From NCBI GenBank assembly GCA_024278835.1, contig JAJRSK010000021.1, forward strand, positions 5,306 through 69,305: DNA of 64,000 nucleotides, written 5' to 3'. Shown in pieces: positions 16,280 through 59,132 of the stretch. Under the pieces are notes generated by a model. That model saw only the letters and a program-made list of their open reading frames with translations. It was not told where the DNA came from and searched no databases. Within the stretch, counting starts at the first letter, position 1. Each line of letters starts with the position of its first letter. A program made the translations under genes and the position numbers. Source of the stretch: Campylobacterales bacterium. GTDB lineage: Bacteria; Campylobacterota; Campylobacteria; Campylobacterales; QNZT01.

Positions 16280-16993
16280 TTAAATGATGTCTCCCTTTAG
16301 GGGGACTTTGGATGAGACGACTTTTTTGTTTTCTATCTTTAGAATTCTATCGCAAAGAGGAAACATCGCTTCATCATGCGTTACCATGATAACAGCAACA
16401 TTTTGATCTATGGCTATCTTTTTGAGCATCTTTACGACATCAACGGAGCGTGCAGAATCAAGTGCTGCTGTTGGTTCATCTGCCAGTATGATTTCAGGCT
16501 TGTTTGCCAAGGCTCTTGCTATGGCAACTCTTTGGTTTTGTCCACCTGAGAGTTGTGAAGGCAGAGCATGGGCTTTAGAGGATATATCAAAATATTCTAA
16601 AAGTGCCATAGCCTCTTTTTCTGACTGTTTTTTAGAGATGCCATTGGTTTGTGGTACTAGCGTGATGTTTTCAAGAACCGTCAAAAAAGGTATCAGATAA
16701 TGGGCTTGAAAGATAAAACCGATTTTTTCCCGTCGTATCTTTCTGGTCTCTTTGGTAAGCCACTTGTTATCATACACTTTTTCATCACCTAGATATATAG
16801 TCCCAGAAGTTGGCTCTTCTACGCATCCTATCATCATAAGAAGTGTGGTTTTTCCTGCGCCACTTGGTGCTATAAGTGCTACAAGTTCACCTTTGTTTAC
16901 ACTAAAAGAGGCACCATCTATCACTTCAACAAGATTGTCGCCAAATCCAAAATTTTTGACTAGATTTTCAACACGTATACTTTGTTCAGTCAT
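16280..16993 (-). CDS. ABC transporter ATP-binding protein (MacB/LolD-type)
   Basis: Walker A GSGKT-like APSGAGKTT, signature LSGGQNQR, Walker B ILADEPT. Confidence 0.9.
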   Translation of the reverse strand: MTEQSIRVENLVKNFGFGDNLVEVIDGASFSVNKGELVALIAPSGAGKTTLLMMIGCVEEPTSGTIYLGDEKVYDNKWLTKETRKIRREKIGFIFQAHYLIPFLTVLENITLVPQTNGISKKQSEKEAMALLEYFDISSKAHALPSQLSGGQNQRVAIARALANKPEIILADEPTAALDSARSVDVVKMLKKIAIDQNVAVIMVTHDEAMFPLCDRILKIENKKVVSSKVPLKGDII

Positions 16994-16994
16994 A

Positions 16995-18140
16995 TCAACC
17001 TCCTATCGCTGCTGCTGGATCAGCACTGATGACTTTTTTCACACCGATAAAAGAGGACAAAATAGAAAAGACCATCACAACTAAAAAAAGCATCCAGGCA
17101 TCAGGAATTTCCAAAACAACTCTTTTTGGAAAGTTATCATAAATCAGATGAGAAAAGATATTGCCAAATATAAAGGCTAAAAACCCAAAAAGGAGGGTCT
17201 CTTGTACAATCATTTTGATAATCATGCTGTTTGGTATACCGATGAGTTTCATGATAGAAATCTCTTTCATTTTCTCTAACGTCATGGTATAAATGATAAG
17301 TGCGATAATAATCGTAGAAACAGCGACCAAGATAGCAGTAAACATCCCTATTTGTTTAGAAGCCTTTTCGATGAGGTTTTTAGTCAGTATCTCTTTTTGG
17401 TCAGCTTTGGTATAAACACTTTTATGTTTATAGTCTCTTATCTCTTGTGCTACGGCGTCAGGAGAATAACCGTGTCGAAGGGAAGCTACAATCGTATTGA
17501 CCATATGAGAATCTCGGTTTATGATGCCTCTTGCTTTGTCACTTCTTATCCTGTTGTTGGAGTAGGAAAATTGTAATTCTTGGGCGTCTTTTAGGCTGAT
17601 ATAAACCAAGGGGTCACCACCTGAAGAGACGGTTCCCTTTGTGATACCTACGACATTAAAGTCGTTTCTACCAAGCGTGATACGTTCACCTATCCCAAAG
17701 CCTGTTTTATCAGTCACTACTATCTCATAATGGCTCTGTTTTAGACCTCTTCCCTCTATGATCCGTTCTGGATTGATAGCATCGAAACTGCCATGAGGAT
17801 CAAATCCGACTGCCACCACACGCACAGGTTTTACAGATGCAGGAAGTTGGATGTTTTGAAATGTTAGTGCTTCAGCTTTATCAATGCCAGAGATGGTACG
17901 AAGTGTATCTTTTAAATCTTCGTGTACTCTTGATGCTTCAGCAAATGGACCAAGTGTGTCTTCTTGCACCACCCATAAATCAACATTTAAATCATTTAAC
18001 AGTAACTCTGCATCAACAATCATACCTCTATAAACACCTATCATGATAAGAACGATACCTAGTAACATCCCCACACCCATGGATGTAACGATAAATTTTC
18101 CCAATCCATGTGCGATATCTTTTTGTGCTAAATTAATCAT
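16995..18140 (-). CDS. ABC transporter permease, FtsX/MacB-like
   Basis: N-terminal TM segment, a large periplasmic domain, and a C-terminal FtsX-type three-TM bundle. Confidence 0.8.
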   Translation of the reverse strand: MINLAQKDIAHGLGKFIVTSMGVGMLLGIVLIMIGVYRGMIVDAELLLNDLNVDLWVVQEDTLGPFAEASRVHEDLKDTLRTISGIDKAEALTFQNIQLPASVKPVRVVAVGFDPHGSFDAINPERIIEGRGLKQSHYEIVVTDKTGFGIGERITLGRNDFNVVGITKGTVSSGGDPLVYISLKDAQELQFSYSNNRIRSDKARGIINRDSHMVNTIVASLRHGYSPDAVAQEIRDYKHKSVYTKADQKEILTKNLIEKASKQIGMFTAILVAVSTIIIALIIYTMTLEKMKEISIMKLIGIPNSMIIKMIVQETLLFGFLAFIFGNIFSHLIYDNFPKRVVLEIPDAWMLFLVVMVFSILSSFIGVKKVISADPAAAIGG

Positions 18141-19279
18141 TAGTGAATGCTCATTCCCTCTTTGAGTGCTTTGTTCTTAGGTTTTTGTATCAAAATCTTT
18201 GCATTTTTATCAAGCCCTGTGATGCCTAACTCTTTTTCGCCCCTAGCGATAATCTTCACACTTTGAAAGTGTGCTTTTGCGTTTTTAGCTATCCATACAC
18301 CTGCTTTTTCACCTTGATAGATAAGCGCATAATTGGGGATTTTTGCGATATTATCAAAATGTTTTGTCGTGATGAATACTTCTGCTTGTTCATTCATAAA
18401 AAATGGAATCGGCAATGTGTCAAAAGCGATATTGACTTCTCTTTCTCCCGTGATGGCATCACTTTGGGCGACGATACGTTTGACTGAGCCTTTAAACTTT
18501 TTATCATTTTGTGAACGTAGTAGGATGGTGGTTGTTTGTCCTACTTTCACGTCACCACTAATTTTTTCATCGATATAAGCTTTAATCCAAACAGTTTTTG
18601 GATTTACTATGCGCAAGATACTTTGTGCAGGTGTTACACTTTGGTCTACCTCCGCATTTTTTGATATGACATAGCCATCGATGGGAGCGTAGATTTTGTA
18701 GCGAGAGAGTTTGATATTAAGTGCTTCAACACCTTTTTTTGCACGCTTAACTTCTATCTTTGCAGAGTTGACATGTGCTTTAGCGGCACTTAGTTGTGCA
18801 CTTATCCCATCAAAATCTGCTTTGACTTTATCGTATTCGGATTGTGAAACAAAAGATTGTTTTTTTAGTTTTGCGTAACGCTTATAGGTGAGATATGCGA
18901 GGTTTTTTTGCGCTTGTAGACTCTTGAGCTCTTTTTGAGATGCTTCTAGTTCTGAGATGGCTTTTTTTACAGAGATTTTTGCACTATCTAAAAGTTCAGG
19001 GATATCAACGCTATCTATGGTGACTAACAAATCTCCTTTTTTAACCCACAAGCCTTCATCACTTAAAATGGATAAAATCTTTCCACCTGTCTGTGCGTTG
19101 ATAGTATAAATATTTTTGGCACCGACATTACCGATACCAAAAACTTCTACATCTAAGGAGCCGACTGTTGGAGAGATAGTTGTATAGGTAGATTTTGGGA
19201 GATAGACTTTGTTATAAAAGATAAATCCACCGATGCCGATAATGGCAAAGATGATGAAATACTTCAGTAGTTTACTAAT
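18140..19279 (-). CDS. Efflux periplasmic adaptor (membrane fusion protein); start codon uncertain
   Basis: HlyD/MFP-type coiled-coil and beta-barrel segments. The canonical-start ORF begins at 19051 (TTG). The same frame stays open upstream and encodes the expected TM anchor KYFIIFAIIGIGGFIFY with no ATG/GTG/TTG. Confidence 0.7.
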   Translation of the reverse strand: MSKLLKYFIIFAIIGIGGFIFYNKVYLPKSTYTTISPTVGSLDVEVFGIGNVGAKNIYTINAQTGGKILSILSDEGLWVKKGDLLVTIDSVDIPELLDSAKISVKKAISELEASQKELKSLQAQKNLAYLTYKRYAKLKKQSFVSQSEYDKVKADFDGISAQLSAAKAHVNSAKIEVKRAKKGVEALNIKLSRYKIYAPIDGYVISKNAEVDQSVTPAQSILRIVNPKTVWIKAYIDEKISGDVKVGQTTTILLRSQNDKKFKGSVKRIVAQSDAITGEREVNIAFDTLPIPFFMNEQAEVFITTKHFDNIAKIPNYALIYQGEKAGVWIAKNAKAHFQSVKIIARGEKELGITGLDKNAKILIQKPKNKALKEGMSIH

Positions 19280-20529
19280 GATATGTTTCCTTTTAAGTAT
19301 TGGATACGATTTATCGCCATGCGTCTTGCATAGTAAGCTTCGAGTACGCCAAGACGTGCATCTAAGAGAAGTGAAATCGCATCTAATACTTCTATATACG
19401 TTGATAGTCCCTCTTTGTATCTAGCTTCAAGAATCTTTTTTGTTTGGATAGCTGCTTTTTCTTGCACTTGTTTTGCTTTTATCGTTACCGCATATCTTTT
19501 GATATCTATAAAAAGTGCCTGTATTTCTTCTTTTAGTGCTAAAATCTTTGATACTTTTTTCTCTTTTGCCATTTGTAGTCCTATCTGGGCTTTTTGGGCT
19601 TCAGCCGTGGTTCTTCCTCCGTTATAAAGAGGAATATTGAGAGTCAATCCAACCAGTTTGGAGTCATAACTATTTAAAGTATCCAAGTGATTATAAGAGG
19701 CAACGGCATCAAGTGAGCCATAGTGAGATGCGCGAGCTGCTTTGTGAAGCAGTCTATTTTTATCTATATTTTGGGTATCTATCTGCATCTGATAATTATT
19801 TTCCAAAATCATTTTTTCTATATTTTTATCAAAATGAGAAGTGTCTTTGATAACGTTATCTTCTAATACAACATCATCTTTTATCTCTTGTGCCATATAC
19901 AGAGATAAAGTTGTTTTTGCTTTTTCATAGCCCGCTTTAGCAGCAGCTAATTTATCTTTTGCCAGATAAAGGGCAGATAAAAATCGACTTGCATCTGCTT
20001 TTGTTTTTAACCCCTGTTTGACGAGTGCCTTTGATTGTGCATAATAAGCTTTTTTAGTTTCAAGATCTTTTTTTCTAACGGCTACCGACTCCTTTTGTAT
20101 GACTAAAAGAGCATAAAGTGACTTGACTTTATATGCCATCAAAGCTTTTGCATCTTGGAGTGAGAGTTGGGATATCTCTTCATCTAGTTTTGACGCTTCA
20201 ATTTTTGACGATGTTTTGGAAAAGTCCCAAATTTTTTGCTTTAGGTTTACGCCTACATTCCAACCATCTTCTTCTATCGTGTGAAAGGAGCCGTTTACTG
20301 GAAGTGCATAGGTTTGCAAGGGGTTGTATTCAGCGTGTAAGTTGATTTGAGGAAGATATTCTGCAGATGCGGCATCATAACTTTTTTTTGATTGTTTGAT
20401 TTTGAGTATAAAAGACTTTATATCTGGATGATTTGTCAGCGTTTTATCGATGCTCTCTTGCAGGGTTAGAGTTTGTGCATAAAGCGCATCTGTCAAAAGT
20501 ATACTTATAAGCAGTAAACGTTTATTCAT
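19264..20529 (-). CDS. TolC-family outer membrane efflux protein
   Basis: Signal peptide and the two-repeat TolC/OEP helical pattern. Confidence 0.85.
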   Translation of the reverse strand: MNKRLLLISILLTDALYAQTLTLQESIDKTLTNHPDIKSFILKIKQSKKSYDAASAEYLPQINLHAEYNPLQTYALPVNGSFHTIEEDGWNVGVNLKQKIWDFSKTSSKIEASKLDEEISQLSLQDAKALMAYKVKSLYALLVIQKESVAVRKKDLETKKAYYAQSKALVKQGLKTKADASRFLSALYLAKDKLAAAKAGYEKAKTTLSLYMAQEIKDDVVLEDNVIKDTSHFDKNIEKMILENNYQMQIDTQNIDKNRLLHKAARASHYGSLDAVASYNHLDTLNSYDSKLVGLTLNIPLYNGGRTTAEAQKAQIGLQMAKEKKVSKILALKEEIQALFIDIKRYAVTIKAKQVQEKAAIQTKKILEARYKEGLSTYIEVLDAISLLLDARLGVLEAYYARRMAINRIQYLKGNISLVNY

Positions 20530-20567
20530 ATTCTCTCCTCATTATATATCATCATTTTACAGATGTT

Positions 20568-20586
20568 ATGTGAATTGAATATGAAT
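20568..20586 (-). promoter_or_regulatory. OmpR/PhoB-style direct repeat ATTCATATTCAATTCACAT upstream of the TolC-MFP-ABC operon
   Basis: TTCATAT-N4-TTCACAT (11-bp period) lies 8 nt upstream of TAAAAT. A nearly identical box with the same spacing is at 59133-59151. Confidence 0.55.
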
Positions 20587-22694: not shown

Positions 22695-23774
22695 TTAAAA
22701 TAGTTTTCCAATTTTATAAAATCCAAACCAGTACAATATCCCTCCCAAGAGCATCACCCCTCCAAAACATGGTAAAAGATCGATAAACTCAGTTCCTCTA
22801 TAAAAGATACTTTCTGCCCCTTCTATATAGTAGCGAAGAGGGGAGAAAAGTGAAAGTGTTTGAAAAACTGGGTGCATGGCATAAACAGGTGTCCAAGCAC
22901 CACTAAGAAATATAAGAGGCATCATGATAACGATAGAGAGTTGGGCAACTTGCATGATATCTTTTGAAATAGCAGCAACAAAAAGACCGATACCAGCACT
23001 GGAAAAAGCATATAAAAATGTCAAAAGTATAAATGCCCAAAATGAACCATTCATAGGCGTATCAAAAGCACTCAACAGCACAAACCCCAATGCTAAAACT
23101 GTGCCAGCGGTTACGATGAGCACCTGAGAAAGACTTTTTGCTAAAATCATAATCTTTGGATTGATTGGCATCAAAAGCATGATGTCCCATGTACCTTCCT
23201 CTTTCTCTTTGACAAAAACGATAGCGGTGAGGATGATAACTAACATTGTGATGATAGAGAGTAATTCTGTTAGTGCCATAAAAGTATGGTTGTTGGCATT
23301 TTCATTGAAAAGTTTGTGTGTTTTAAATGTTATGGGTAACTTTATGGATTGAAAATCCATCACGATGTTTTGTATATATGCCAATGTTGTGAAGCTTTGT
23401 GAAGCGGCAGTAGCATCAAGCAGTAGATTTAGCTGTGTATTTTTTCCTTCTCTGAAATCTTTTTCAAAATTACTATCAAATACCATTCCCACGATAACTT
23501 CTTTGTTAAATATCGCTTGACTAAGTGCTTTTTGCGAAAGGTATTTGTGAGGAGAGGTAAATTCTGGTTTATGCAGATGAGAGAGAATCTTTTGACTGAT
23601 ACCTCCTCCTGTCATATCTACATATCCTATGGTGACATTGCGTGGTTTTATCTCTATTCCTTCACCTGCTATGTAGATATCTAATGTAAAAGAATAAAGC
23701 ACTACAAGCACTAACATAATTGAACGCATAAAACTAACAAGCTCTTTTCCCAGTACGATAAAAAAGGTATGCAT
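22695..23774 (-). CDS. ABC-2 type transporter permease
   Basis: N-terminal TM, periplasmic loop, C-terminal ABC-2 membrane domain. Paralogous to the next gene. Confidence 0.8.
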   Translation of the reverse strand: MHTFFIVLGKELVSFMRSIMLVLVVLYSFTLDIYIAGEGIEIKPRNVTIGYVDMTGGGISQKILSHLHKPEFTSPHKYLSQKALSQAIFNKEVIVGMVFDSNFEKDFREGKNTQLNLLLDATAASQSFTTLAYIQNIVMDFQSIKLPITFKTHKLFNENANNHTFMALTELLSIITMLVIILTAIVFVKEKEEGTWDIMLLMPINPKIMILAKSLSQVLIVTAGTVLALGFVLLSAFDTPMNGSFWAFILLTFLYAFSSAGIGLFVAAISKDIMQVAQLSIVIMMPLIFLSGAWTPVYAMHPVFQTLSLFSPLRYYIEGAESIFYRGTEFIDLLPCFGGVMLLGGILYWFGFYKIGKLF

Positions 23775-24895
23775 TATTTCATCTCCTTTTTCAAAAGAAG
23801 TACACCACTTGTAAAAAATAGGAGTAAAAATCCAACTAAAATAGCCAAATAAAGTATGATTTTAGAAGAGTCTAGCCCCTGACCTATAAGAAAAGTATCG
23901 TAGAGGATATGGTTATAGTACATGACAGGAAACATATGTGCTTCTATGTAGGATTCTCCCTGCATAGAAGAGATAGGCATCAGCATGCCTGAGTAGAGAA
24001 ATCCAGGTAAAATAGTCACAGTAACAGTTAAAACGACAGCGACTATCTGTTTTTTTGTGATGACAGAGATGAGCATACCTATAGATAAGCTTATCATGAT
24101 ATATAATTCACTCGATAACCAATAGAGCATAAAACTCCCACGAAAAGGTACTTCAAACAGATAGAGTGCCCATAAAAGAAGTATAAATATGTTGATTGAA
24201 TGTAGTAAAAAAACAGGAAGTAATTTTGCTAAAAGAAACTCTCCCTTGCTAAGTGGTGAAGCATAAAAGTTAAAAATTGTTCCTTTCTCTTTCTCTCTTA
24301 CAATAAGAAGTGCTGTTAAAATAGCAGGTGCAACTAAAAGTACAAGACCGATAAGTCCAGGGATGATAGCATCCTCATCTCTCATCGCTTGATTAAAAAG
24401 TGTACGAGTATTTAGCACAATCATGCCTTTTTGTTTCATGCCTATAGATGATATGGCTTCATTTGCCGCAGAAAATACCGCCCCTTGTATATAACTCTCT
24501 ATCGTTGTGGCTCGTGTGGGAAATGCTGCGTCTACAAAAACAGCAAGTTCACTTTTTTGTCCATGTAACAAATGCTTCTCAAAAGAGCTAGGGATGATGA
24601 TAATTGCATCGGTTTTTGCTCTTTTTATCTCTCTCAATGCATCATCTTCAGCCATTTGTGTAAGCCTAGCATTGAAGTATTGGCTGTGTTCAAATTTGGA
24701 AATTAACTCTTTTGAGTATTTGCTTTGATCATTGTCTATGATGAGGACTCTAGCATGGGAAACATCCATGCGTATGCCATACCCAAAAAGAAGCACTATC
24801 ATGCTCGGCATAAGATAGACCATCATGATAAGGCGGGTACGAAAAAGTTCGATAAACTCTTTGAGTATATATGCTTTGATACTCAACCATTTCAT
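23774..24895 (-). CDS. ABC-2 type transporter permease
   Basis: Same architecture as 22695-23774. Overlapping stop/start. Confidence 0.8.
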   Translation of the reverse strand: MKWLSIKAYILKEFIELFRTRLIMMVYLMPSMIVLLFGYGIRMDVSHARVLIIDNDQSKYSKELISKFEHSQYFNARLTQMAEDDALREIKRAKTDAIIIIPSSFEKHLLHGQKSELAVFVDAAFPTRATTIESYIQGAVFSAANEAISSIGMKQKGMIVLNTRTLFNQAMRDEDAIIPGLIGLVLLVAPAILTALLIVREKEKGTIFNFYASPLSKGEFLLAKLLPVFLLHSINIFILLLWALYLFEVPFRGSFMLYWLSSELYIMISLSIGMLISVITKKQIVAVVLTVTVTILPGFLYSGMLMPISSMQGESYIEAHMFPVMYYNHILYDTFLIGQGLDSSKIILYLAILVGFLLLFFTSGVLLLKKEMK

Positions 24896-26517
24896 GATTT
24901 ACTCCTGTAAAAGTCAAGAAAAATCTCTTCAAAAGTTTTTGCATTTGCATGTGTTGCATAAAGATTTTTAACTGTGTCATCAGCAATTTTTTTACCATCT
25001 TTGAGTAAGACTACTCTATCACAATACTCCGCTTCACTCATGTAATGTGTGGTGATGAGGATAGAAATTCCCCACTTCTCTTTTAGTTTTCTAAGTATTT
25101 TCCAAAACTGTGCTCTTGCTATGGTATCAACACCAGAAGTTGGTTCATCGAGAAATAGCACCAAGGGTTCATGCAATAGTGCAGCAGCTATGGAAAATCT
25201 TTGATTGACACCCAATGGAAGATTGCTAGGAAAATTATCCATATAAGTTAAAAAACCAAGTTCATTGGCATATAGTTTGATTCGTTTAAGTGCAATATCT
25301 GTTGGAATTTTATGCATACTTGCAAAGTAGAGGAGATTTTCCTTTACAGTCATATCTTTATAGAGTGCAAAATGTTGACTGACATATCCGATTTTTGATT
25401 TTAAATCCTGTCTATCTTTTCCACTTTTTATCGTTTTACCAAGTAGTTGGAGTTCCCCCTCATCTATGGGGTAGAGTCCAAGCAACATCTTGATAAAAGT
25501 GGTTTTACCAGCACCATTAGCACCCAAAAGTCCTAATATTTCACCTTTTTTTAACTCCATATCTATCTTGTCATTAGCAATAAATTTACCAAAATATTTA
25601 CTGATAGCTTTAGCTTCCATCACAATTTTAGGGATTTTTTCCTCTTTTTCTCTTTTGTGAATATCAATATTTTGTAATGTTTTATGTTTTTTTAAAGCAT
25701 TGACAAAAAAGAGCCCTTCAAGTGTTGGCTTGGCTTTTGGGGCATTTAAAGATTGAAGAGAGTAAGTTCTTTTTTCAAATGAAAAACAGTGAATATCTTT
25801 ACACGAATGCTCTTGATAAGTATAAGGACGCACCGAGTCTATGAGTGTCTCTGTCGTGCCTCTTGCGATAATTTCACCTTCATCAAAAAGTAATACTCTG
25901 TCCATCTTTGCGGCTTCTTGCATATAAGCCGTACTCACCAAGATGATAGATCCTTCCTCTTTTCGTATCGTATCAAGTATCTCCCAAAGTTCAAGTCGGC
26001 TAAGTGGGTCAACACCTGTTGTAGGTTCATCAAGTATCAATAGTTTTGGTCGGTGTAAGAGTGTGCATATAAGAGAGAGTTTTTGCATCATACCCCCACT
26101 AAGTTTTCCAGCTTCCCTATCGATAAAGTTGCTTAACCCAGCCATGTGAAGTAATTTTTTTCTATATTGTTGATGTGAATTATCTTGTATAAGACCATGG
26201 ATATCAGCAAAAAATTGTAAATGCTCAGAAACAGTTAAAGTATCATACAATACCAATCCGATTCCCTGTGGCATCAAACCTATTTGGGATTTTATTTTTT
26301 CTGCTTCTTTGGGTGAATGATAGTGATAGTTATGATAAACAATCTCGCCATCAAAATGAAGTACACCAGCGATGGCATGCATCAAAGAACTTTTTCCAGC
26401 CCCATCAGCCCCGATAAATCCTATGATTTCACCAGAAGATGCAGAAAAAGAACTTTTTTTGAGAGCTACTTTTTTGTTATAGCTAAGGGTGACATCTCTT
26501 ATCTCCAAATCAGACAT
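24892..26517 (-). CDS. ABC transporter ATP-binding protein with two fused ATPase domains (YbhF-like)
   Basis: Two Walker A motifs (GADGAGKSS, GANGAGKTT), two signature motifs (LSGGMMQK, LPLGVNQR), two Walker B motifs (LILDEPT, LFLDEPT). Confidence 0.9.
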   Translation of the reverse strand: MSDLEIRDVTLSYNKKVALKKSSFSASSGEIIGFIGADGAGKSSLMHAIAGVLHFDGEIVYHNYHYHSPKEAEKIKSQIGLMPQGIGLVLYDTLTVSEHLQFFADIHGLIQDNSHQQYRKKLLHMAGLSNFIDREAGKLSGGMMQKLSLICTLLHRPKLLILDEPTTGVDPLSRLELWEILDTIRKEEGSIILVSTAYMQEAAKMDRVLLFDEGEIIARGTTETLIDSVRPYTYQEHSCKDIHCFSFEKRTYSLQSLNAPKAKPTLEGLFFVNALKKHKTLQNIDIHKREKEEKIPKIVMEAKAISKYFGKFIANDKIDMELKKGEILGLLGANGAGKTTFIKMLLGLYPIDEGELQLLGKTIKSGKDRQDLKSKIGYVSQHFALYKDMTVKENLLYFASMHKIPTDIALKRIKLYANELGFLTYMDNFPSNLPLGVNQRFSIAAALLHEPLVLFLDEPTSGVDTIARAQFWKILRKLKEKWGISILITTHYMSEAEYCDRVVLLKDGKKIADDTVKNLYATHANAKTFEEIFLDFYRSKS

Positions 26518-26545
26518 AGCTACATTTCTAATCGTCTGTTATAAA

Positions 26546-27703
26546 TCATAACGCTGGTAACGCATCCATAGATTTTGGTAATCCTTTACCATCCATGCTG
26601 ATAACTCCGATTGCAGGAATTCCCAATTTTAGTAAAGGATCTATCTTTAAAGGCTTAAGATGGACAGCATATACACGCTGTATTCGGTCACTTCTGACAC
26701 TAACTTCTTTAGGTGTAAATTCTGCTTTCATTGCGATATTTACCACTTTTGCAGGGATGGGTCGATGCGGACTAGCATCTAAAAATATAACTGCTCTATC
26801 GCCTAACTTAATTTTTCCATTTTGTAAAGTATCGACAAATATTTTAAGATAGAGCGAATGAGGGTCTAAAAGTGTTGCTATGGGCATACCCGCTCCAACC
26901 ACTTCACCGATATTGGCTATTTTATCGACGACATACCCATCTATCGGCGATTTTAACACCATCTCATCAAGCATTGCATCTATACCACTTTTCGATGCTT
27001 CAAGTGCGGTGATGTTTTCTTTGAGTGAGGCAAGCATATATTCCAAAGCTTCTAGATTTTTTTGTGATGCTTTAGCTTCTGACATCGTTGCTTTGGAAAG
27101 TTCTATCATCGAAGTAACTTCTTTTTGTTTCTCTTTGAGTGCTTGGAGTTTGTTGTTTTCTGTATCTAGTTTTAGTTTTGCAAGTTCATAACTATGTAGT
27201 TCTATAGAGTTACTTTTATACAACATGCGACTTCTCTCAAAATCTTTTTTTGCTTGTTTGTATAACTGTTTTTGGATGTTTATATTGTTTAAAAGCCCTT
27301 TAAGTTGTGATTTTGTGGCAGAAAACTGACTTTCTGCTTTTTTAAGAGACAAGGGAATAGTTTTTTTTGATATCTCAAGTTCTAGTTTTTTAGCTTCATA
27401 TATCTTTTGTTGTGCGCGTATCTGTGCCTCTATCTGTGTTTTTTTCGCTTGTTGTTCAGCGCTTTTGAGTTTGGCAATTAGCATCCCTTTTTTGATGAAG
27501 CTACCATCATCTACCATTACAATCTCCAGACGACTTGGATATTTTGTATTAAGATTAATCAAATCTCCATCAATGCGTCCAGTTGCCTCTATCAGGTTTT
27601 GCGGTAATTTTTTAGGATGCAGTTTTGCATAAATCATCACAGAGGCACTCACAAGTAAAAGAGCCACAAGAACCCAAATCCAATATCTCTTTATCTTTTG
27701 CAT
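26546..27703 (-). CDS. HlyD-family secretion/adaptor protein (YbhG-like)
   Basis: TM anchor, long coiled coil, beta-barrel C-terminus. The ATG at 27703 has better RBS spacing (GGAGAG N5) than the GTG at 27709. Confidence 0.8.
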   Translation of the reverse strand: MQKIKRYWIWVLVALLLVSASVMIYAKLHPKKLPQNLIEATGRIDGDLINLNTKYPSRLEIVMVDDGSFIKKGMLIAKLKSAEQQAKKTQIEAQIRAQQKIYEAKKLELEISKKTIPLSLKKAESQFSATKSQLKGLLNNINIQKQLYKQAKKDFERSRMLYKSNSIELHSYELAKLKLDTENNKLQALKEKQKEVTSMIELSKATMSEAKASQKNLEALEYMLASLKENITALEASKSGIDAMLDEMVLKSPIDGYVVDKIANIGEVVGAGMPIATLLDPHSLYLKIFVDTLQNGKIKLGDRAVIFLDASPHRPIPAKVVNIAMKAEFTPKEVSVRSDRIQRVYAVHLKPLKIDPLLKLGIPAIGVISMDGKGLPKSMDALPAL

Positions 27704-27752
27704 TGTCACTCTCCTCTACCCCTGTATTATAACCTTTTTTGTTTTTTGTTTT

Positions 27753-27768
27753 TGCTATATATGTAGCA
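27753..27768 (-). promoter_or_regulatory. Crp/Fnr-type box (minus read TGCTACATATATAGCA) upstream of the HlyD-ABC operon
   Basis: 21 nt upstream of TATAAT (27731-27726). Confidence 0.5.
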
Positions 27769-27807
27769 TCTTTTAAGAGTGCGCTAAAAGATGAATTGTA
27801 ATTGACT

Positions 27808-27823
27808 TGCTACTTTAGTACCA
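27808..27823 (+). promoter_or_regulatory. Crp/Fnr-type box TGCTACTTTAGTACCA upstream of the rhodanese gene
   Basis: 21 nt upstream of TATGAT (27845-27850). Confidence 0.5.
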
Positions 27824-27906
27824 TTTAAAACTATAGTTTTTTAGTATGATTTGATTACCTTTTGATATTTTATCAATCAAAGGAAAAAACTACTAAAGGG
27901 GATGTC

Positions 27907-28290
27907 ATGATAAATGAATTATCAACTATCATAGCAAACGATGCAAAAAAAGAGAATTTAGGACATGTGGATTTACATAAAACAAGAGAGTTGTTGATGG
28001 ATGTGGGTGCTATGTTGCTAGATGTTCGACCAAGTGCAAAAGTAGAGGGCGAAAATGCACAAGAAGCAGGCATAATCAATACTTACTTTACACCTTATGA
28101 GGATTTTCATAGCTATATAGATGTATTACCTTCAGATAAGAGTGCAGTAATCGTTGTAGCTTGTTTAAAAGGTTGGTTTGCAAATCGTATCATGGGTTAT
28201 CTGGAGATGATGGGTTATAAAAATGTTTATGTACTTGATACTACAATCGTAGATCTTATCGAAGTACATCATGCACACGCAGATAAATAA
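27907..28290 (+). CDS. Rhodanese-like domain protein
   Basis: Rhodanese fold blocks (LLDVRP ... VVACLKGWFANR active-site Cys loop). The ATG at 27907 follows an RBS GGGG. The longer ORF from 27862 overlaps the promoter's leader. Confidence 0.65.
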   Translation: MINELSTIIANDAKKENLGHVDLHKTRELLMDVGAMLLDVRPSAKVEGENAQEAGIINTYFTPYEDFHSYIDVLPSDKSAVIVVACLKGWFANRIMGYLEMMGYKNVYVLDTTIVDLIEVHHAHADK

Positions 28291-28303
28291 TAGAAGCATT
28301 GTT

Positions 28304-28330
28304 TAACTCCCCATTAGCTTTGGGGAGTTA
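28304..28330. terminator. 9-bp perfect hairpin between the convergent rhodanese and RND genes
   Basis: TAACTCCCC (28304-28312), 9-nt loop, GGGGAGTTA (28322-28330). No adjacent U-tract on either strand. Confidence 0.4.
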
Positions 28331-28410
28331 CTTATCGTGATAAGTGCTGTTTCTAAGCCTGACCATATAGCATAAGCCATACTGATATCAAACTTTTTAA
28401 ACGCGCAAGG

Positions 28411-31400
28411 TCAGTTATTAATTTTTCCCTCATAAAACTTCCTTAACCATCTATCAAATGGATTTATCATCTTGTAAAATACTGGTACAACCAAAAGTGT
28501 CAAGACCATAGAACTCAAAAGTCCTCCGATGATAGATATCGCCATCGGTGCGTTTGTCTCACTTCCTAGTCCACTACCAAAAGCCAAAGGCAACATGGCA
28601 AATATCATGGCAACGGTTGTCATAAGGATAGGTCGAAGTCTCTTTTCGCCTGCTTCTATCAAGGCTTCATCTGAAGTTTTTCCTTTGTCCATCGCATGGT
28701 TTGCAAAATCCACGAGCAATACAGCATTTTTTCCAACCATACCCATCAAAAGCATAAATCCTATCATGACAAAGAGTGAAAACTGCAATCCACTCAGATA
28801 CAAAGCTATCATGACACCGATGATACTAAGTGGCAATGCTATCATGATGATGATTGGTTGGATGAGTGATTCATACAAAATAGCCAAAATGATAAACATC
28901 AGTATGACTGATAGTCCAAGTGCCGAAGCAAATGCTTTGCCTGTTTTTTCCATCTCTTCAGCAAAGCCAGTAAAACGATAACTTACACCATCAGGCAAAA
29001 GCTTATCAATTCCCTCTCGCGTATAATTGACTGCTCCTCCCAAATCAAGCCCAAATAAATCAGCAAAAACTGTCACTTGTCGCTGTCTATCAAAGTGATT
29101 TATTGTTGCGAGTGAGGTAGCCTTGCTAAACGCTACTAAGCCATCAAGATAAACCAAGTCACCATTGTTAGCTCTCAATTGCACTTTTTTGATATCTTCT
29201 ATAGAGATTCTCTGGGTGTCTGGAAAACGAAGTGTGATGTTGTACTGTTTTCCATTTTCCTCAAAATAGGATATCTCCAAATCACTTGAAAAAGCTGTGG
29301 ATATGGCACTAGCGATTTGTGAAGCAGATATACCAAGTCTGTTGGCATTGGTTCTTTTTATGTTGATGTCTATCTGTGGTTTTCCATCATCTAAGTTTGT
29401 ATCTACATCCATGAACCCTTTTTTAGCTTTGAGGTAATCAGTGAGTTTTTTGGTGGCTACTTTCAAATCCTCAAACGAGTCAGATTTTAAAACGATTTGA
29501 TATGGTACTGAAACGCCTGCACCTTTGATAGTTGGTATTGCAGCAGCGGTGATGAAGAGATTTTTTTTGAATGGTTCTAGCTTTTTTCTAAAGTTTTGAA
29601 TCACCTCTTCTTGGTTTAAGCTTCTCTCTTTTCTATCGTTTAGTTTGACATAAATTTTGGATTTGTGTTTCTCTTTTGCCGTATTGTAACCTACACTGAG
29701 GATGGTATAGAGTACATTTTTATCTTCTCTTACCCTCTTTTCGACTTCTTTTGACTCTTTTATCATCTCTTCTAGTGAGACGCTAGGATTGGCTTTGATA
29801 AATATCTCAAATTCTGCTTTATCCTCTTTTGGGATAAAGTCCATACCGATTTTTGGAAAGAGTGAGAGTGAGCCAAAAAATAGTCCAAATACCAAAATCA
29901 AAGTGATGATTTTAAATCTCAAAACCACTTTTAAGATGACTTCATAAATCTTCTCTAAAGCTTTAAAAATAGGTTCAGTCACAGTATAAAACCAACTCTC
30001 TTTTTTCTTTAAAACCCTGGCACTAAGACTCGGTATAAAACTTAGAGCCACAGTATAAGAGATGATAACAGCAAAACCAACTGTCATAGCAAATGATTCA
30101 AAAAACTTCCCTACGATGCCACTCATGAATGAAACAGGGACAAATACTGCCAAAAGCATGGCTGATATCGCAAGAATTGTAAATGCCATCTCTTTGACAC
30201 CCTCCACCGCAGCGTCAAACTTACCCATACCTTCTTCAAGCTTTTTGTAGATATTTTCTACCACTACGATAGCATCATCGATGATAATACCGATAGATAG
30301 GGTGAGCCCGATAAGCGTCATCTTATTTAAATCAAAGCCCATATAATCCATCAAAGCAAAAGTACCAAATATCGAAGCAGGGATTGAGAGTGCTGAAACA
30401 AGTGTGATAGTCACATTTCGTAAAAAGACAAATATGATAACAATAGCCAAAAAAGCACCATAGATAAGGTCAAATTTTACATGTTCAAGAGAGTTGATGA
30501 TAAAAGGTGAAGTATCATTTATCGCTTTTATATCGTACTTTTCTCCTGCCATTTTTTTAAGTGTTGGAAGTGTATCTTTGACTCTTTGGACGATATCTAT
30601 GGTGTTGGTTCCTGAAATCTTTTGCACTTCAAGCATCACACCCTCTACACCATTTAACGAAGCATAACTTTTAGGGTCACTTAATGTATCTTTTACGGTG
30701 GCTATATCTTTTAGCTTGATATCATCTTTTATCATGATATTTTCAAGCTCTTTAACACTAAGTGCATCGGCTTTTGTTTTTAGGGTAAACTCTTTTGTTT
30801 TGGAGATGAGTTTACCGCCGCCTATTTTGACATTTTCACGAGCGATAATCTGGTTGAGTTCGCTGACTGTGATGCCATATTTGTTGAGTTGGTTTGGATT
30901 TGGAAAGATTTTTATCTCTCTGTCTTTGTATCCTGTTATTTGGATAGCACCTACGCCATTTATCTTTTGGAGGGTTGGTTTTACTTTTTCATCCGCAAAT
31001 TGCATCAAGTTTTTGATGCTGTCATGTTTAGCCGTTAAAAAGATGTTGATAACAGGTGCTCCACCGATATCAAGTTTACTCACAAGTGGTGTTTTTGCAT
31101 CACGAGGAAGAAGAACCGCTGCGACTTTATCCCTGACATCATTGGTTGCTTCATTGATATCTCGCTCAAGGAAAAATTGGATTCTAACAACACTTATACC
31201 CTCAGAACTTGAAGAGATGATTTTATCGATGCCTCCTATCCTAGAGATAGCCTCTTCTATCTTGTCTGTTACTTGCGACTCGATGGTACTTGCTTCTGCC
31301 CCAGGGTAGATAGTTTGGACTGTAACCATCGGAAAGTCCACTTTTGGGAAGAGTGCTGAAGGCATGGATTTGAAACTCATCCAACCAAATATCACTAGCG

Positions 31401-31452
31401 TGATGACATACATCAGCGTGGTGATAGGTCTATTTATGGCTAATTTATACAT
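28411..31452 (-). CDS. RND efflux transporter permease (AcrB/HAE family)
   Basis: 1013 aa. 12-TM, two-large-loop RND architecture with conserved TM4 (IIDDAIVVVENI) and TM10/11 blocks. Confidence 0.9.
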   Translation of the reverse strand: MYKLAINRPITTLMYVITLVIFGWMSFKSMPSALFPKVDFPMVTVQTIYPGAEASTIESQVTDKIEEAISRIGGIDKIISSSSEGISVVRIQFFLERDINEATNDVRDKVAAVLLPRDAKTPLVSKLDIGGAPVINIFLTAKHDSIKNLMQFADEKVKPTLQKINGVGAIQITGYKDREIKIFPNPNQLNKYGITVSELNQIIARENVKIGGGKLISKTKEFTLKTKADALSVKELENIMIKDDIKLKDIATVKDTLSDPKSYASLNGVEGVMLEVQKISGTNTIDIVQRVKDTLPTLKKMAGEKYDIKAINDTSPFIINSLEHVKFDLIYGAFLAIVIIFVFLRNVTITLVSALSIPASIFGTFALMDYMGFDLNKMTLIGLTLSIGIIIDDAIVVVENIYKKLEEGMGKFDAAVEGVKEMAFTILAISAMLLAVFVPVSFMSGIVGKFFESFAMTVGFAVIISYTVALSFIPSLSARVLKKKESWFYTVTEPIFKALEKIYEVILKVVLRFKIITLILVFGLFFGSLSLFPKIGMDFIPKEDKAEFEIFIKANPSVSLEEMIKESKEVEKRVREDKNVLYTILSVGYNTAKEKHKSKIYVKLNDRKERSLNQEEVIQNFRKKLEPFKKNLFITAAAIPTIKGAGVSVPYQIVLKSDSFEDLKVATKKLTDYLKAKKGFMDVDTNLDDGKPQIDINIKRTNANRLGISASQIASAISTAFSSDLEISYFEENGKQYNITLRFPDTQRISIEDIKKVQLRANNGDLVYLDGLVAFSKATSLATINHFDRQRQVTVFADLFGLDLGGAVNYTREGIDKLLPDGVSYRFTGFAEEMEKTGKAFASALGLSVILMFIILAILYESLIQPIIIMIALPLSIIGVMIALYLSGLQFSLFVMIGFMLLMGMVGKNAVLLVDFANHAMDKGKTSDEALIEAGEKRLRPILMTTVAMIFAMLPLAFGSGLGSETNAPMAISIIGGLLSSMVLTLLVVPVFYKMINPFDRWLRKFYEGKINN

Positions 31453-31457
31453 AACTT

Positions 31458-32168
31458 TTACTTCTTATCAATCGTGATAATTGTACCATCACCAAAAAGA
31501 CCAACGATAAAATCTTTGGCTTTTACTTCTGCTTTTATCTTTCGTTTTTTTCTGTCAATTGTTGGGTAGATTTTACTGATAACTCCCGCATAAGTTTTAT
31601 CACTTCCATCTACTTTATAAGAGAATTTATCGCCGACTTTTACATCAGCCCAATACTTTTGGTCAAACTCTAAAAGTAGTTTTCTGTCACTTTGACTTTG
31701 GATTTTAAAAACGGTTCGTATCATCGCACCACTAACCGCATCGCCCACTTCAATAGCTTTATCGTAGATGATGCCATCAAAAGGTGCTTTTAAAATTGTT
31801 TTATCAAGTAGTGCTTGTTTGTATGAGAGTTGTGCTTTTGCATTGGCATATTTAGAAGCAAATTTATCAAACTCTCCTTGGTCTATGATGGATTTTACTT
31901 TTTGTCGTCGCATATAATCTTTTTTGGCATATTTTAGAGCGGTTTTGGTGATATGTAAAGAGGCTTTATAGTCATCATTTTGTAACTTTGCCAAGATGTC
32001 CCCTTTTTTTACAATTGAACCGATATCAACTTTTACACTATCTACGATACCGCTACTAGAAAAAGCCAAGTTTGCACTTTTATCTGCGTGTACGGTAAAT
32101 GTCGCATAAATCTCCTTTGCATGGAGTGTTGCTAGAAGTAGGCTTAATAATATAAATATTTTTCTCAT
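31458..32168 (-). CDS. RND efflux periplasmic adaptor subunit (short form)
   Basis: Signal peptide. Lipoyl-like (VKKGDILAKL) and beta-barrel MFP segments. Confidence 0.75.
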   Translation of the reverse strand: MRKIFILLSLLLATLHAKEIYATFTVHADKSANLAFSSSGIVDSVKVDIGSIVKKGDILAKLQNDDYKASLHITKTALKYAKKDYMRRQKVKSIIDQGEFDKFASKYANAKAQLSYKQALLDKTILKAPFDGIIYDKAIEVGDAVSGAMIRTVFKIQSQSDRKLLLEFDQKYWADVKVGDKFSYKVDGSDKTYAGVISKIYPTIDRKKRKIKAEVKAKDFIVGLFGDGTIITIDKK

Positions 32169-33403
32169 TTGATATAATCCTTGATGTTTTTATTGGCACT
32201 AAAATAATAGTTTGCTTTGGCGATTTCAAAATCATTTTCTGCTTTTTCAAATCGTGCTTGTGAAGCTGTTTTTTGGCTAAGTGCATCTAAGTAGGTTACT
32301 TGATCAACGATACCTGCATCAAATTTTGCTTTGATACTTTTGTAAACACTTAGGCTTGCTTTTTTTGCACTCATGGCACTTTTGATATTTAGTTTGGCAG
32401 TTTTGAGTGATTGTAGTGCCAAGTTGTATCCTATCTTTTCTTGTTTTATCTGAAATGCTATCTGCTCTTGTAGTGCCTTTTTTTGCAGTTTGAGAGCTTG
32501 TTTTTGTTTTTTGATACTGCCATTGTCAAAGAGTCTCATATTTGCCATAAGGGCTATTTTATTTTGTTTATCAATCTCTTCTATACCCATCTTTTTTAAA
32601 CCATTATTTCGACTATAATCGTAGTAACCATAAGTATCTTCTACTCTAATATTTGGATAATAAGCGGCATTAATCGCTTTTGCACTAGCTTGGATAGCAT
32701 GTGCTTTTTCTTGCATGGATTTGATGGCTTCACTTGGTTTAAAAGAGAAGTTTTGAGGTGTTTGGAGAGTTGCTTCTTCAAGTGTATCTATATCCATAGC
32801 ACTTTTAAGAGAGAGGTAATTTTGAATGGTTTTGATATTGAGTTTTAATGACTCTAGGGCATAATTATTTGCTTGAAAAGCAGCTTCTAATTTATCGACA
32901 TAATCTTGTGGTGCCAATCCTGCTGCTTTAAACTTTTTAATCCTTTTTATATCGGCTTTGAGTTGTGTTGATTTTTCATCCAAAGCTTTTAATGAAGCTT
33001 CCATACTTTTGATGTTAAAAAAATCTTTTACGATATCTAAAGTAATAGTTTTTTGAGTATATAAGAGATCATATTTACTAGAGTTATAAGCACTTTTTTT
33101 CTGATTTACTTGGGCACTTTTTCTATATCCATCAAAAATATCTACACCCGCTTTTGCATACACATTGAGTGTATTTCCTGCTTGAAAAGAGATATGTTTA
33201 TCTAGGCTTATATAAGCAGCCCCCACATCAAGGGTGGGATAATAACGACTCTTTTGTGAATCCAACTCTTTTTCTTTAGATTTCAAGTTGTATTGTGATG
33301 CTTTAATCATATTGTTTGTATCAAGGGCATTCTCTATCAAGGCGGTTAAACTTTGTGCATATATACAAGCGGGCAGACTGAATGTTAAGATTATCTTTTT
33401 CAA
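32165..33403 (-). CDS. TolC-family outer membrane factor
   Basis: Signal peptide and duplicated OEP helical repeats. Overlaps both neighbours by 4 nt. Confidence 0.8.
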   Translation of the reverse strand: MKKIILTFSLPACIYAQSLTALIENALDTNNMIKASQYNLKSKEKELDSQKSRYYPTLDVGAAYISLDKHISFQAGNTLNVYAKAGVDIFDGYRKSAQVNQKKSAYNSSKYDLLYTQKTITLDIVKDFFNIKSMEASLKALDEKSTQLKADIKRIKKFKAAGLAPQDYVDKLEAAFQANNYALESLKLNIKTIQNYLSLKSAMDIDTLEEATLQTPQNFSFKPSEAIKSMQEKAHAIQASAKAINAAYYPNIRVEDTYGYYDYSRNNGLKKMGIEEIDKQNKIALMANMRLFDNGSIKKQKQALKLQKKALQEQIAFQIKQEKIGYNLALQSLKTAKLNIKSAMSAKKASLSVYKSIKAKFDAGIVDQVTYLDALSQKTASQARFEKAENDFEIAKANYYFSANKNIKDYIK

Positions 33404-49281: not shown

Positions 49282-49955
49282 GCAATTAGTGTTTCAATAT
49301 CTGCATCATTTATTTTTTTAAAAGGTGGCATCATTGCTTTTTCAAACTCTTTCCAAGTCCCTTTACTACCTTCTTTAATTACCTTTTTTATCTCATTATC
49401 TTCTTTTTGTGCGATAGCTCTAAAGGATGGACCTGTTTTTGGTTTAACCTTATCATGACAGTTAAAACAACCATTGGCAGTTGCTAGCTGTTCTCCCTTT
49501 GGCAAGGCATCAAATTTTGCTTTTTTTTGCATCTGTTTTAAGAATTTATTTTGATCATAATAGTCATATACATAGGTAGCAATGGCGGCTAACTCAGCTT
49601 CTGTCACCTTTCCCTTTTGAGATGGCATCAAGCCATAGCTTTTGAGACTCTCTTCATCACAAAAAGATTTTTCTTTGGATGGATGGAGTACAAAGTCTTG
49701 AAAAAAGGCGATAAATTTTGGTTTTTTATCACTAGGTGTTTTGACCTTCATAAAATCTTTGACATGAAAGGCCACTGCCATCATCGGTGGCGCTTTTTCG
49801 TCTTCATAAGTTTTTGGTGGCATGGCAAGGTTGTGGCAAGAGGCACACTTTTTTTGCACTAAGTTTGCACCGTTATATTTTACCTTCGGTTGTGATGAAC
49901 AGGCACTTAGCCCTAAGAGCACTATGCATGATACGATGGGTGTTAAATATTTCAT
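49263..49955 (-). CDS. Di-haem c-type cytochrome lipoprotein
   Basis: Lipobox LGLSAC and two CxxCH motifs (CASCH, CFNCH). Confidence 0.75.
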   Translation of the reverse strand: MKYLTPIVSCIVLLGLSACSSQPKVKYNGANLVQKKCASCHNLAMPPKTYEDEKAPPMMAVAFHVKDFMKVKTPSDKKPKFIAFFQDFVLHPSKEKSFCDEESLKSYGLMPSQKGKVTEAELAAIATYVYDYYDQNKFLKQMQKKAKFDALPKGEQLATANGCFNCHDKVKPKTGPSFRAIAQKEDNEIKKVIKEGSKGTWKEFEKAMMPPFKKINDADIETLIAWIKTL

Positions 49956-54594: not shown

Positions 54595-56958
54595 ATGCTG
54601 TATCGCTTATATGATAAGGTGATATTACAGTATCCACGGTGGACACTTTTTATCGTCCTTATCATGATAGGCTTGGTAGGGCTTTATGCCCCAAAGTTGC
54701 AGATAGATGCGTCAGCGAAAACGCTTATTTTAGAACATGATAAAGATTTGCAATATGCTAGGGAAATTCAGGCACGTTATCATACGCCGGATTTTCTAGT
54801 GATAACGTATACGCCTAAAACTACTTTACTCTCAAAGCAGAGTTTAGAGACTATAAAAGCATTAAGTCAAAAACTTGAAGCTTTGGAGATGGTTACCTCT
54901 GTTACTTCTATCTTGAATGTTCCTCTCTTGCAAAGTCCTTCTAAGCCAGTTAAAGAACTATTGGAAAATATCCCCACGATAGAAGGGGGAGCGGTCGATA
55001 AAACATTGGCTAAAAAAGAATTTTTAAAGAGTCCTATTTATCAAAAAAACTTGGTAAGTGAAGATTTTAAGACCACGGCGATACTGGTTAATCTCAAAGA
55101 AGATAGCACGCTTAGTCATGATATGCAGAGGGAAAAAGAGCACCAAAATATCAAAGATATCAGAGCTATCATGATAGAGCATAGCCAAGAGGGAGAACTC
55201 TTTTTGGGTGGTGTTAGTATGATTGCAGATGATATGATTAGCTATGTAAGAAGTGATCTTTTTGTGTATGGTATGACGGTTATATTTCTGATGATTATGG
55301 TGTTGTGGATTGTGTTTAGGCAGATGCGTTATGTTGTTTTACCTATCTTTATAGCTGCGTTATCGGTCTTGACTACGTGTGGGTTGCTAGGAATGTTTGG
55401 CTGGCAAGTGACGGTGATATCTTCAAATTTTGTCTCCCTGCAAATCATCATCACGATGTCTATTATCATCCATTTAATAGTACGTTATCGTGAGTTGTTA
55501 TATACCTATCCTCACGCTTCACATCATAACATCATTTTGGATACAGTGCTCTCGATGGCGAAGCCTAGCTTTTTCGCGGTGATTACGACTATCGCTGGGT
55601 TTAGTTCTCTGATAGTGAGTGATATCTTACCAGTTATCAACCTTGGGTGGATGATGAGTGCGGGGATATCCCTGTCACTTTTGATAGCATTTTTAGTCTT
55701 TCCTACAGTCATGATTTTACTGCCTAAAAGAGCACCTATGACGCTATTTGAGCATAAGTTTTCTTTGATTAGAGTCTATGCGTATATCGCGCTACATTAT
55801 ACCAAGACGATATATGTTGTGAGTTTTTTGATAGTGATTTTTTCTGTTACAGGTGGCATGAGACTACTAGTTGAAAATAGTTTTATCGATTATTTTAAAA
55901 CCTCTACGCCTATCTATCAGGGGATGAAAATCATCGACCAGAAGTTGGGTGGTACAACACCACTAGATGTGATATATGATCTTGATACGAGTGAAGTTGT
56001 TACAGAAGAGCTCTTGGATGAAGATGAAGAGTTTGACAGCTTTGAGGAGGAGTTTGCCCAGAGTGAAAATGAAGCGAAGTATTGGTTCACACCGGTAAAG
56101 ATGCAAAAGATACAAGCCATTCATGACTATTTAAAAAGCCTTCCAGAAGTGGGCAATGTCCAATCTCTTGCAACGATATTAGAAGTGGGGCGCGTGCTAA
56201 ATAAAGGCAAAGAGTTAGACAATTTTGAGTTAGCACTTCTTTATAATGAACTTCCAGGAGAGTTCAAGAAAAGTCTTTTTAGCCCTTATGTTAGTATCGA
56301 GGAAAATCAAGTGCGTTTTGCGATGCGGATTGTGGATTCACAAGAGGGCTTGCGTAGAAATGAACTTATTTTAAAAATCAAGCGAGATTTAGCAGCGATG
56401 CCAAACATAAAAGGGGAGAAGATACATCTCTCCAACTTGATGATTTTATATAACAATATGCTCAGAAGTCTTTTTGATTCGCAGATAAAGACACTGGGTA
56501 TCATGATAGCAGCCTTGACGCTGATGTTCTTTTTCTTATTTAAATCTTTTAAGCTTGCTTTTATCGCGATGGTGGCAAATATCATCCCAATTTCTACCGT
56601 TTTTGGTTTGATGGGCTGGGTGGGTATCCCCCTTGATATGATGACGATTACTATCGCGGCGATTAGTATCGGCATAGGGGTGGATGATACGATACATTAT
56701 ATCCATCGTTATAGTGTGGAGATAGCAAAAGATGGTGATTATACCGCGGCGTTACAGCGTTCACATGAGAGTATCGGATATGCGATGTATTATACGACCT
56801 TTGCTATCATGATAGGCTTTTCTGTGCTGGTGCTTTCAAACTTTTTACCAACGATTTATTTTGGATTGTTGACGGTATTTGCTGTCTTTATGGCACTAAC
56901 GGCTGATTTACTGCTGTTGCCACGATTGATACTGGTTTTGAAACCTTTTAAGGTTTAG
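54595..56958 (+). CDS. MMPL/RND-superfamily transporter (HpnN-like two-repeat architecture)
   Basis: 787 aa. Two repeats of one TM, a periplasmic domain and five TMs. GVDDTIHY-type block in the second repeat. Confidence 0.75.
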   Translation: MLYRLYDKVILQYPRWTLFIVLIMIGLVGLYAPKLQIDASAKTLILEHDKDLQYAREIQARYHTPDFLVITYTPKTTLLSKQSLETIKALSQKLEALEMVTSVTSILNVPLLQSPSKPVKELLENIPTIEGGAVDKTLAKKEFLKSPIYQKNLVSEDFKTTAILVNLKEDSTLSHDMQREKEHQNIKDIRAIMIEHSQEGELFLGGVSMIADDMISYVRSDLFVYGMTVIFLMIMVLWIVFRQMRYVVLPIFIAALSVLTTCGLLGMFGWQVTVISSNFVSLQIIITMSIIIHLIVRYRELLYTYPHASHHNIILDTVLSMAKPSFFAVITTIAGFSSLIVSDILPVINLGWMMSAGISLSLLIAFLVFPTVMILLPKRAPMTLFEHKFSLIRVYAYIALHYTKTIYVVSFLIVIFSVTGGMRLLVENSFIDYFKTSTPIYQGMKIIDQKLGGTTPLDVIYDLDTSEVVTEELLDEDEEFDSFEEEFAQSENEAKYWFTPVKMQKIQAIHDYLKSLPEVGNVQSLATILEVGRVLNKGKELDNFELALLYNELPGEFKKSLFSPYVSIEENQVRFAMRIVDSQEGLRRNELILKIKRDLAAMPNIKGEKIHLSNLMILYNNMLRSLFDSQIKTLGIMIAALTLMFFFLFKSFKLAFIAMVANIIPISTVFGLMGWVGIPLDMMTITIAAISIGIGVDDTIHYIHRYSVEIAKDGDYTAALQRSHESIGYAMYYTTFAIMIGFSVLVLSNFLPTIYFGLLTVFAVFMALTADLLLLPRLILVLKPFKV

Positions 56959-59095: not shown

Positions 59096-59132
59096 CGTTC
59101 GCCCTTGTCATTTGCGTCAGTATAACGCTAGT

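Follow-up and report, generated by a model that had tools for sequence, protein, structure and literature searches.

A probable DccR-type regulon joining a two-component system and a distant efflux operon in a Campylobacterales bacterium

PhoB of Escherichia coli is an OmpR-family regulator that binds head to tail, as a winged-helix dimer, to the pho box, in which two 7-bp direct repeats lying 4 bp apart (an 11-bp period) replace the −35 element near the −10 element. In Campylobacter jejuni, the regulon of the DccRS two-component system is said to have been described by MacKichan in 2004 and by Wosten in 2010. Wosten et al. reportedly found five DccR-dependent promoters with WTTCAC-N6-TTCACW over the −35 region, and one of these promoters is said to precede a putative macrolide efflux pump operon. 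Binding and activation by DccR are reported to depend on phosphorylation, with induction in late stationary phase. DccRS (Cj1223c-Cj1222c) enhances the transcription of a few genes for periplasmic or membrane proteins (PMC9449129), dccR belongs to its own regulon (PMC7118207), and the Cj0606-0608 MacABC pump has been linked to DccRS (PMC11365321). Here, we analyzed a 64-kb stretch of contig JAJRSK010000021.1 from a Campylobacterales bacterium (the whole stretch is called the window), in which the same kind of promoter box precedes a four-gene efflux operon (box 1) and a three-gene operon encoding a response regulator and its kinase (box 2).

From these comparisons, the system is very probably a DccR-type regulon, that is, wiring already described for C. 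jejuni and not a new mechanism. We consider it probable that the DccR-type regulator encoded at 58427-59095 binds both boxes, thereby activating its own operon and the efflux operon. As in DccRS, the gene for the OmpR-family regulator overlaps that for a HisKA/HATPase kinase, and, judging from the position of box 1, the regulon would include an ABC-type tripartite efflux operon. The pumps differ in composition; that of C. jejuni consists of MacA (Cj0606), MacB (Cj0607) and MacC (Cj0608), whereas the window encodes an outer-membrane efflux protein (OEP), an adaptor, and a separate permease and ATPase. The 3′ neighbor of the kinase gene is a gene for a CxxCH protein in the window and groEL in C. 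jejuni, and the sensor domains of the two kinases do not align. Moreover, the relatives of the window come from hydrothermal-vent and other environmental samples, in contrast to the gut commensal C. jejuni.

Two promoter boxes with the same geometry

The boxes were read directly from the minus strand. Box 1 (20586-20568), 5′ of the efflux operon, is ATTCATATTCAATTCACAT, in which TCA separates the units ATTCATAT and ATTCACAT of a tandem repeat that has a period of 11 bp. Box 2 (59151-59133), 5′ of the regulator operon, is ATTCATATCTAGTTCACAT, composed as ATTCATAT-CTA-GTTCACAT. Both are followed on the same strand by a −10 element, TAAAAT (20559-20554) at the efflux promoter and TATACT (59124-59119) at the regulator promoter, each starting 10 nt past the TTCAC core. 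The 8-nt gaps between box and −10 element are AACATCTG and ACTAGCGT, respectively. The position of TAAAAT was kept in relatives, and TATACT was invariant in an alignment of close relatives (A1). Further downstream, a GAGGAG ribosome-binding site (20540-20535) precedes the ATG of the efflux operon at 20529, and AAGGG (59106-59102) precedes that of the regulator operon at 59095. By position, transcription is predicted to start near 20547 and near 59112. Thus, both promoters have, in the −35 position, a tandem repeat with an 11-bp period whose distance to the −10 element is fixed at 10 nt.

Intergenic gaps were very short at both boxes: box 1 lies about 20 nt past the stop codon of a beta-CASP ribonuclease gene, and box 2 starts 8 nt past the stop codon of ppnP. 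Between the two promoters, similarity was limited to a pair of 8-mers (ATTCATAT and TTCACATA) and, in the −10 element, the T/A positions. The flanks of the two boxes were unrelated, which excluded a duplicated segment or a mobile repeat. A sigma-70 scan found no −35-like hexamer paired with TAAAAT. The same scan proposed the sigma-70-like promoter ATAACA-17-TATAAT (20569-20541), which was rejected because its TATAAT abuts the ribosome-binding site and is unconserved in relatives.

TTCAYAT-N4-TTCAYAT occurred twice in the 64 kb, against 0.02 occurrences expected, and none of 100 shuffled sequences reached two. As this pattern was defined post hoc, a weight matrix built from 36 distinct sites, all in other genomes and none from the window, provided the stronger, independent test. 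With this matrix, box 1 scored 26.7 bits and box 2 scored 24.9 bits. The third-best match in the window (60706, plus strand) reached only 10.2 bits, inside the range of the null, in which the maxima of 200 Markov-shuffled windows averaged 6.6 bits with a highest value of 19.6. Further convincing copies of the pattern were absent from the window even when one or two mismatches were allowed. These results agree with the first-pass annotation of this DNA, which had given the sequence and coordinates of the box, the 8-nt gap, the −10 hexamer and the position of the ATG at both promoters exactly as we read them, had described two repeats with an 11-bp period in place of a −35 element, and had seen no other copy in the window.

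That annotation had also called the boxes pho-box-like, which holds for the layout alone. Like the pho box, the window boxes are 7-bp tandem repeats with an 11-bp period, in place of the −35 element and at a fixed distance from the −10 element. However, the half-site is TTCAYAT in the window and CTGTCAT in the pho box, and the targets are an efflux pump and a regulator operon, phosphate-uptake genes following neither site. In addition, the window regulator scored 113.9 bits against the PhoB model TIGR02154, whose cut-off is 296.2. The DccR box is therefore the closer precedent; the window sites read ATTCAT-N6-TTCACA, one C-to-T change from the reported consensus WTTCAC-N6-TTCACW.

Kinship with DccR and conservation of the box

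Next, the window regulator was compared with that of C. jejuni, whose dccRS genes were found beside groESL in a C. jejuni locus reached with a GroEL query (L135; loci are given by number where they need to be told apart). The same gene order has been published (PMC5447181). The window regulator was 49% identical to DccR over 220 aa (211 bits), compared with 24% identity to C. jejuni CprR. DccR was compared with 57 Campylobacterota regulators, a set to which C. jejuni RacR, PhosR and CosR did not belong. All 28 regulators of the window type were top DccR matches (46-53% identity), with 179-220 bits except for the lone Nautiliaceae member (L032), which scored 172 bits. Three other regulator types, encoded beside efflux operons or beside this system, scored at most 164 bits. 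An Arcobacteraceae group scored 165-202 bits, which overlaps the range of the window type. Clustering of the 57 regulators placed the window type apart from four other types. The kinase was 38% identical to C. jejuni DccS, over the catalytic half (238 C-terminal residues) only. In one database source, a 63% relative bears the name DccR. A second two-component system, found just upstream of the DccR-like one in Sulfurovum, was considered as CprRS and rejected, being only 26-30% identical to CprR.

Related loci were collected by a regulator-based genome scan (80 loci, about 37 Campylobacterota, mostly metagenome Sulfurovum assemblies) and by a metagenome scan based on the outer-membrane protein (47 loci); closer relatives were added by look-up. 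The search for the box beyond the window covered 857 kb of these loci and gave 50 matches to TTCAY-N6-TTCAY. In about 38 of the 50, the match was placed in a promoter, with TANNNT exactly 10 nt past the second TTCAY core and a gene start 15-130 nt further. The consensus of the 36 distinct sites was RTTCAYAT-N3-RTTCATAT followed by 8 nt and a TATAAT-like element. Among close relatives, box and −10 element were invariant, whereas the spacer between them and the leader diverged; at box 2, AAAATTCATATCTA and TTCAC were invariant in five close relatives with differing spacers. Box 1 was identical or near-identical in L128, L082 and L081. At the fifth position of the half-site, C and T alternated between half-sites, as expected of a degenerate position.

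As observed, the TTCAY box or a close variant lay upstream of about 26 of 28 orthologous regulator operons, whatever their neighbors. It stood directly 5′ of the regulator ortholog in L005, L009, L010, L014, L016-L019, L022 and L130-L134. In L001, L002, L004, L011, L013, L015, L021, L039 and L053, a short gene for an EF-hand protein or a small c-type cytochrome lay between the box and the regulator gene, within the same operon. The four-gene efflux operon was conserved in about 40 related loci, and the box preceded it in its nearest orthologs (L081-L084, L113-L115, L118, L124, L128 and L129). In Sulfurovum, an OEP-adaptor-RND operon with the box or a variant directly followed the regulator operon in L004, L011, L014, L019, L022, L039 and L042. 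Near the Sulfurovum regulator operon were also genes for DUF2202-like (ferritin-like) lipoproteins, many with a TTCAY box; the lipoprotein and neighbor observations come from L001, L004, L005, L007, L013, L015, L021 and L039. A TonB-like gene and a TonB-dependent receptor gene were seen downstream of the DccR-like operon in Sulfurovum.

At the regulator promoters of L020, L023, L024, L025 (near 9950) and L026 (8797), TTGAT-N6-TTGAT replaced the TTCAY repeat with the same geometry. No obvious recognition-helix change was found in the regulators with these variant promoters.

A second class of boxes, YTAACRT-N4-YTAACA followed by 10 nt and TANNNT, comprised 37 sites (L085-L127, L003, L034, L004 and L014; for example, L091 4939, L121 4893, L003 4751, L034 5968, L004 19500 and L014 18513). 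It differed from the TTCAY box by one base per half-site, and the geometry was identical. This class was located 5′ of the Sulfurimonas-like efflux operon orthologs, which adjoin a two-component system of their own, and also 5′ of the L003 regulator, the L034 adaptor operon and TonB-dependent receptor genes of Sulfurovum. The Sulfurimonas-type system resembles that of the window in its orthologous four-gene efflux operon (55-65% OEP identity) and in the tandem repeat, 10 nt and TANNNT. Unlike in the window, its half-site is YTAACAT, not TTCAYAT, and its regulator, encoded next to the operon, belongs to another type (39-43% identical). In L084, the regulator's own promoter carries TTAGCAT-N4-TTAGTAT, again with the same geometry. 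Comparison of these promoters showed that the TTCAY box is, as judged by association, tied exclusively to the DccR-like regulator type, the other types having YTAAC and TTAGY half-sites.

Regulatory model and its alternatives

In the proposed mechanism, the kinase (57280-58440) would phosphorylate the regulator (58427-59095), which would then bind RTTCAYAT-N3-RTTCAYAT as a head-to-tail dimer and act from the −35 position as a class II activator that recruits RNA polymerase. Box 2 would drive the three-gene regulator operon, resulting in positive autoregulation, and box 1, 38 kb away, would drive the four-gene efflux operon. Binding by this regulator, with activation rather than repression, is the most likely outcome. 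PhoB-type class II activators work from the same promoter architecture, in which a one-turn tandem repeat ends at a set distance (10 nt here) from the −10 element and a −35 element is lacking. The first-pass annotation had proposed that the regulator controls both itself and the exporter; in silico, this proposal draws support from the conservation of the box at orthologous promoters, the kinship with DccR and the published regulon.

Several observations weigh against this model. The upstream region of C. jejuni dccR (L135 13530-13676) has no TTCAY repeat and contains only TTGAT-N7-TTGAT, overlapping an extended −10 element (TGATACAAT), so not every member of the family has the box at the regulator gene. 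In this strain, the pump's adaptor gene lacks its ATG, as described below. Directly upstream of the efflux operon that bears the TTCAY box, L084 and L118 encode another two-component system, consisting of a kinase and a regulator 32-35% identical to that of the window. Finally, 64 kb of the genome is in view, and a regulator of the same specificity could be encoded elsewhere. The last two points favor the alternative that another OmpR-family regulator, encoded outside the window, reads both boxes and that the local regulator is merely one of its targets. We regard this as unlikely. The promoters belonging to the rival regulator types carry different repeats (that of L084, given above, and TTAAC repeats in L003 and L034), which weakens the case for an outside regulator, and the box accompanies the DccR-like operon in nearly all loci regardless of its neighbors. 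Within the window, moreover, no second response regulator gene was found. A regulator is encoded beside the efflux operon in L128, a 94% relative, and was considered as the binder; it was set aside, being of another type (31% identical), encoded behind a PepSY-domain gene and missing from the window.

It is also conceivable, but unlikely, that the local regulator binds both boxes and represses, occluding the −35 region of otherwise constitutive promoters. The box does overlap the region contacted by the polymerase, and Campylobacterota promoters function without a −35 element, so that a protein bound there could block transcription. However, the geometry, with the repeat ending 10 nt before the −10 element, is that of PhoB-type class II activation, and a review describes DccR as enhancing the transcription of its targets (PMC9449129). 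A chance likeness of two A+T-rich promoters, or a promoter element of an unrecognised sigma factor, is highly improbable. When the pattern was relaxed to WTTCAY-N6-TTCAYW, the expected number of matches per window was 0.67, and two or more were found in 14 of 100 shuffled sequences. Nevertheless, the independent matrix placed both boxes above all 200 null maxima, the two boxes share one register with respect to the −10 element and the ATG, and orthologous promoters in many genomes have kept the box. As for a sigma factor, a tandem repeat with a period of one helical turn suits a dimeric winged-helix protein instead. Activation of both operons by the DccR-type regulator remains the reading we prefer.

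Gene content of the operons and the wider regulon

All genes of both operons lie on the minus strand, and Pfam and NCBIfam matches agreed with the gene content given in the first-pass annotation (TolC, adaptor, permease and ATPase; regulator and kinase). The efflux operon runs in the order OEP, adaptor, permease and ATPase, with the four genes abutting or overlapping. The TolC-family outer-membrane efflux protein (19264-20529, 421 aa) matched Pfam OEP (8.6e-55) and TIGR01844 (2e-38). The HlyD/RND_mfp periplasmic adaptor (18140-19279, 379 aa when read from ATT at 19279) scored 123.5 bits with TIGR01730, over the cut-off. The permease (16995-18140, 381 aa) has Pfam MacB_PCD and FtsX domains and is unfused to the ATPase (16280-16993, 237 aa; Pfam ABC_tran), for which the best NCBIfam models were DevA, LolD and MacB-type, all below cut-off. 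Like MacAB-TolC, the pump thus combines an HlyD-type adaptor, a TolC-family channel, a permease with the MacB periplasmic core and FtsX, and an ABC ATPase. In contrast, MacB is one polypeptide, with an N-terminal ATPase and a four-helix permease, whereas ATPase (237 aa) and permease (381 aa) are separate in the window. Likewise, the pump fell below the DevBCA cut-offs (DevA, 207 vs 295.8; DevC, 56.9 vs 290.35; DevB, 34 vs 129).

At the junction of the first two genes (19264-19282, minus strand), the window reads CATATCATTAGT, whereas ten relatives have ATGA, in which the adaptor ATG overlaps the OEP stop codon TGA. Comparison of this junction with the ten relatives indicated a single G-to-T change at 19277, by which the adaptor start became ATT and the OEP stop was lost; the OEP is therefore four codons longer (421 vs 417 aa). 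The ATT at 19279 aligns with the adaptor ATG of the ten relatives, and no ATG, GTG or TTG start for the adaptor gene occurs before 19051. The change either reflects an error in sequencing or has left the adaptor gene with a weaker start codon.

The region immediately upstream of the efflux operon (22695-33403, minus strand) encodes two more putative exporters, neither with a box. One consists of an HlyD-like adaptor (26546-27709), a double ABC ATPase (24892-26517) and two further open reading frames (ORFs; 22695-24895). The other comprises an RND-type pump (28411-31452), an adaptor-like gene (31458-32168) and a 412-aa ORF (32165-33403).

The regulator operon begins with the DccR-like response regulator of the OmpR family (58427-59095, 222 aa; Pfam Response_reg and Trans_reg_C). 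The sensor histidine kinase (57280-58440, 386 aa; Pfam HisKA and HATPase_c), whose gene overlaps that of the regulator by 14 nt, showed in its sequence two hydrophobic segments around an outside domain of about 110 aa. The third gene (56948-57292), which overlaps the kinase gene by 13 nt, encodes a secreted CxxCH protein of 114 aa with a signal-peptide-like N-terminus and no match in Pfam or NCBIfam. The order regulator-kinase-CxxCH gene was kept in about 25 of the related loci collected. In 28 loci, a gene for the 114-aa protein came after the kinase gene, and the CxxCH motif was present in all 28, in which IYxRYLxKYS and SIMP motifs were conserved too. This protein may be a small haem protein working with the sensor. 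As for the signal, the CxxCH protein and the metal- or redox-flavoured targets in Sulfurovum provide only hints. Elsewhere in the window, a gene at 49557-49898 (minus strand) encodes a protein homologous (39% identity) to the small cytochrome encoded ahead of the regulator in Sulfurovum loci; it has no box.

More tentatively, the DccR-type system could be an old efflux and envelope regulon found throughout the Campylobacterota, with the CxxCH protein as co-sensor (e.g., of redox or metal), with targets that shift between lineages and with an efflux operon that has been re-wired, a possibility we hold as doubtful. If so, the target here may be the ABC pump, and those in Sulfurovum may be small cytochromes, ferritin-like lipoproteins and an RND pump. 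The efflux operon may then have passed between OmpR-family systems when a single base changed in each half-site (from TTAACAT to TTCACAT) while the geometry stayed the same.

With the present analysis, an uncultured bacterium related to Sulfurovum gains a regulon assignment that is well supported, and the DccR-type box, until now tied to one pathogen, is traced to a wide range of free-living Campylobacterota. The matrix, together with the fixed 10-nt geometry, is usable for predicting DccR-type regulons throughout the phylum. Furthermore, the comparison across lineages offers a natural example of the re-wiring of an efflux operon between related two-component systems.

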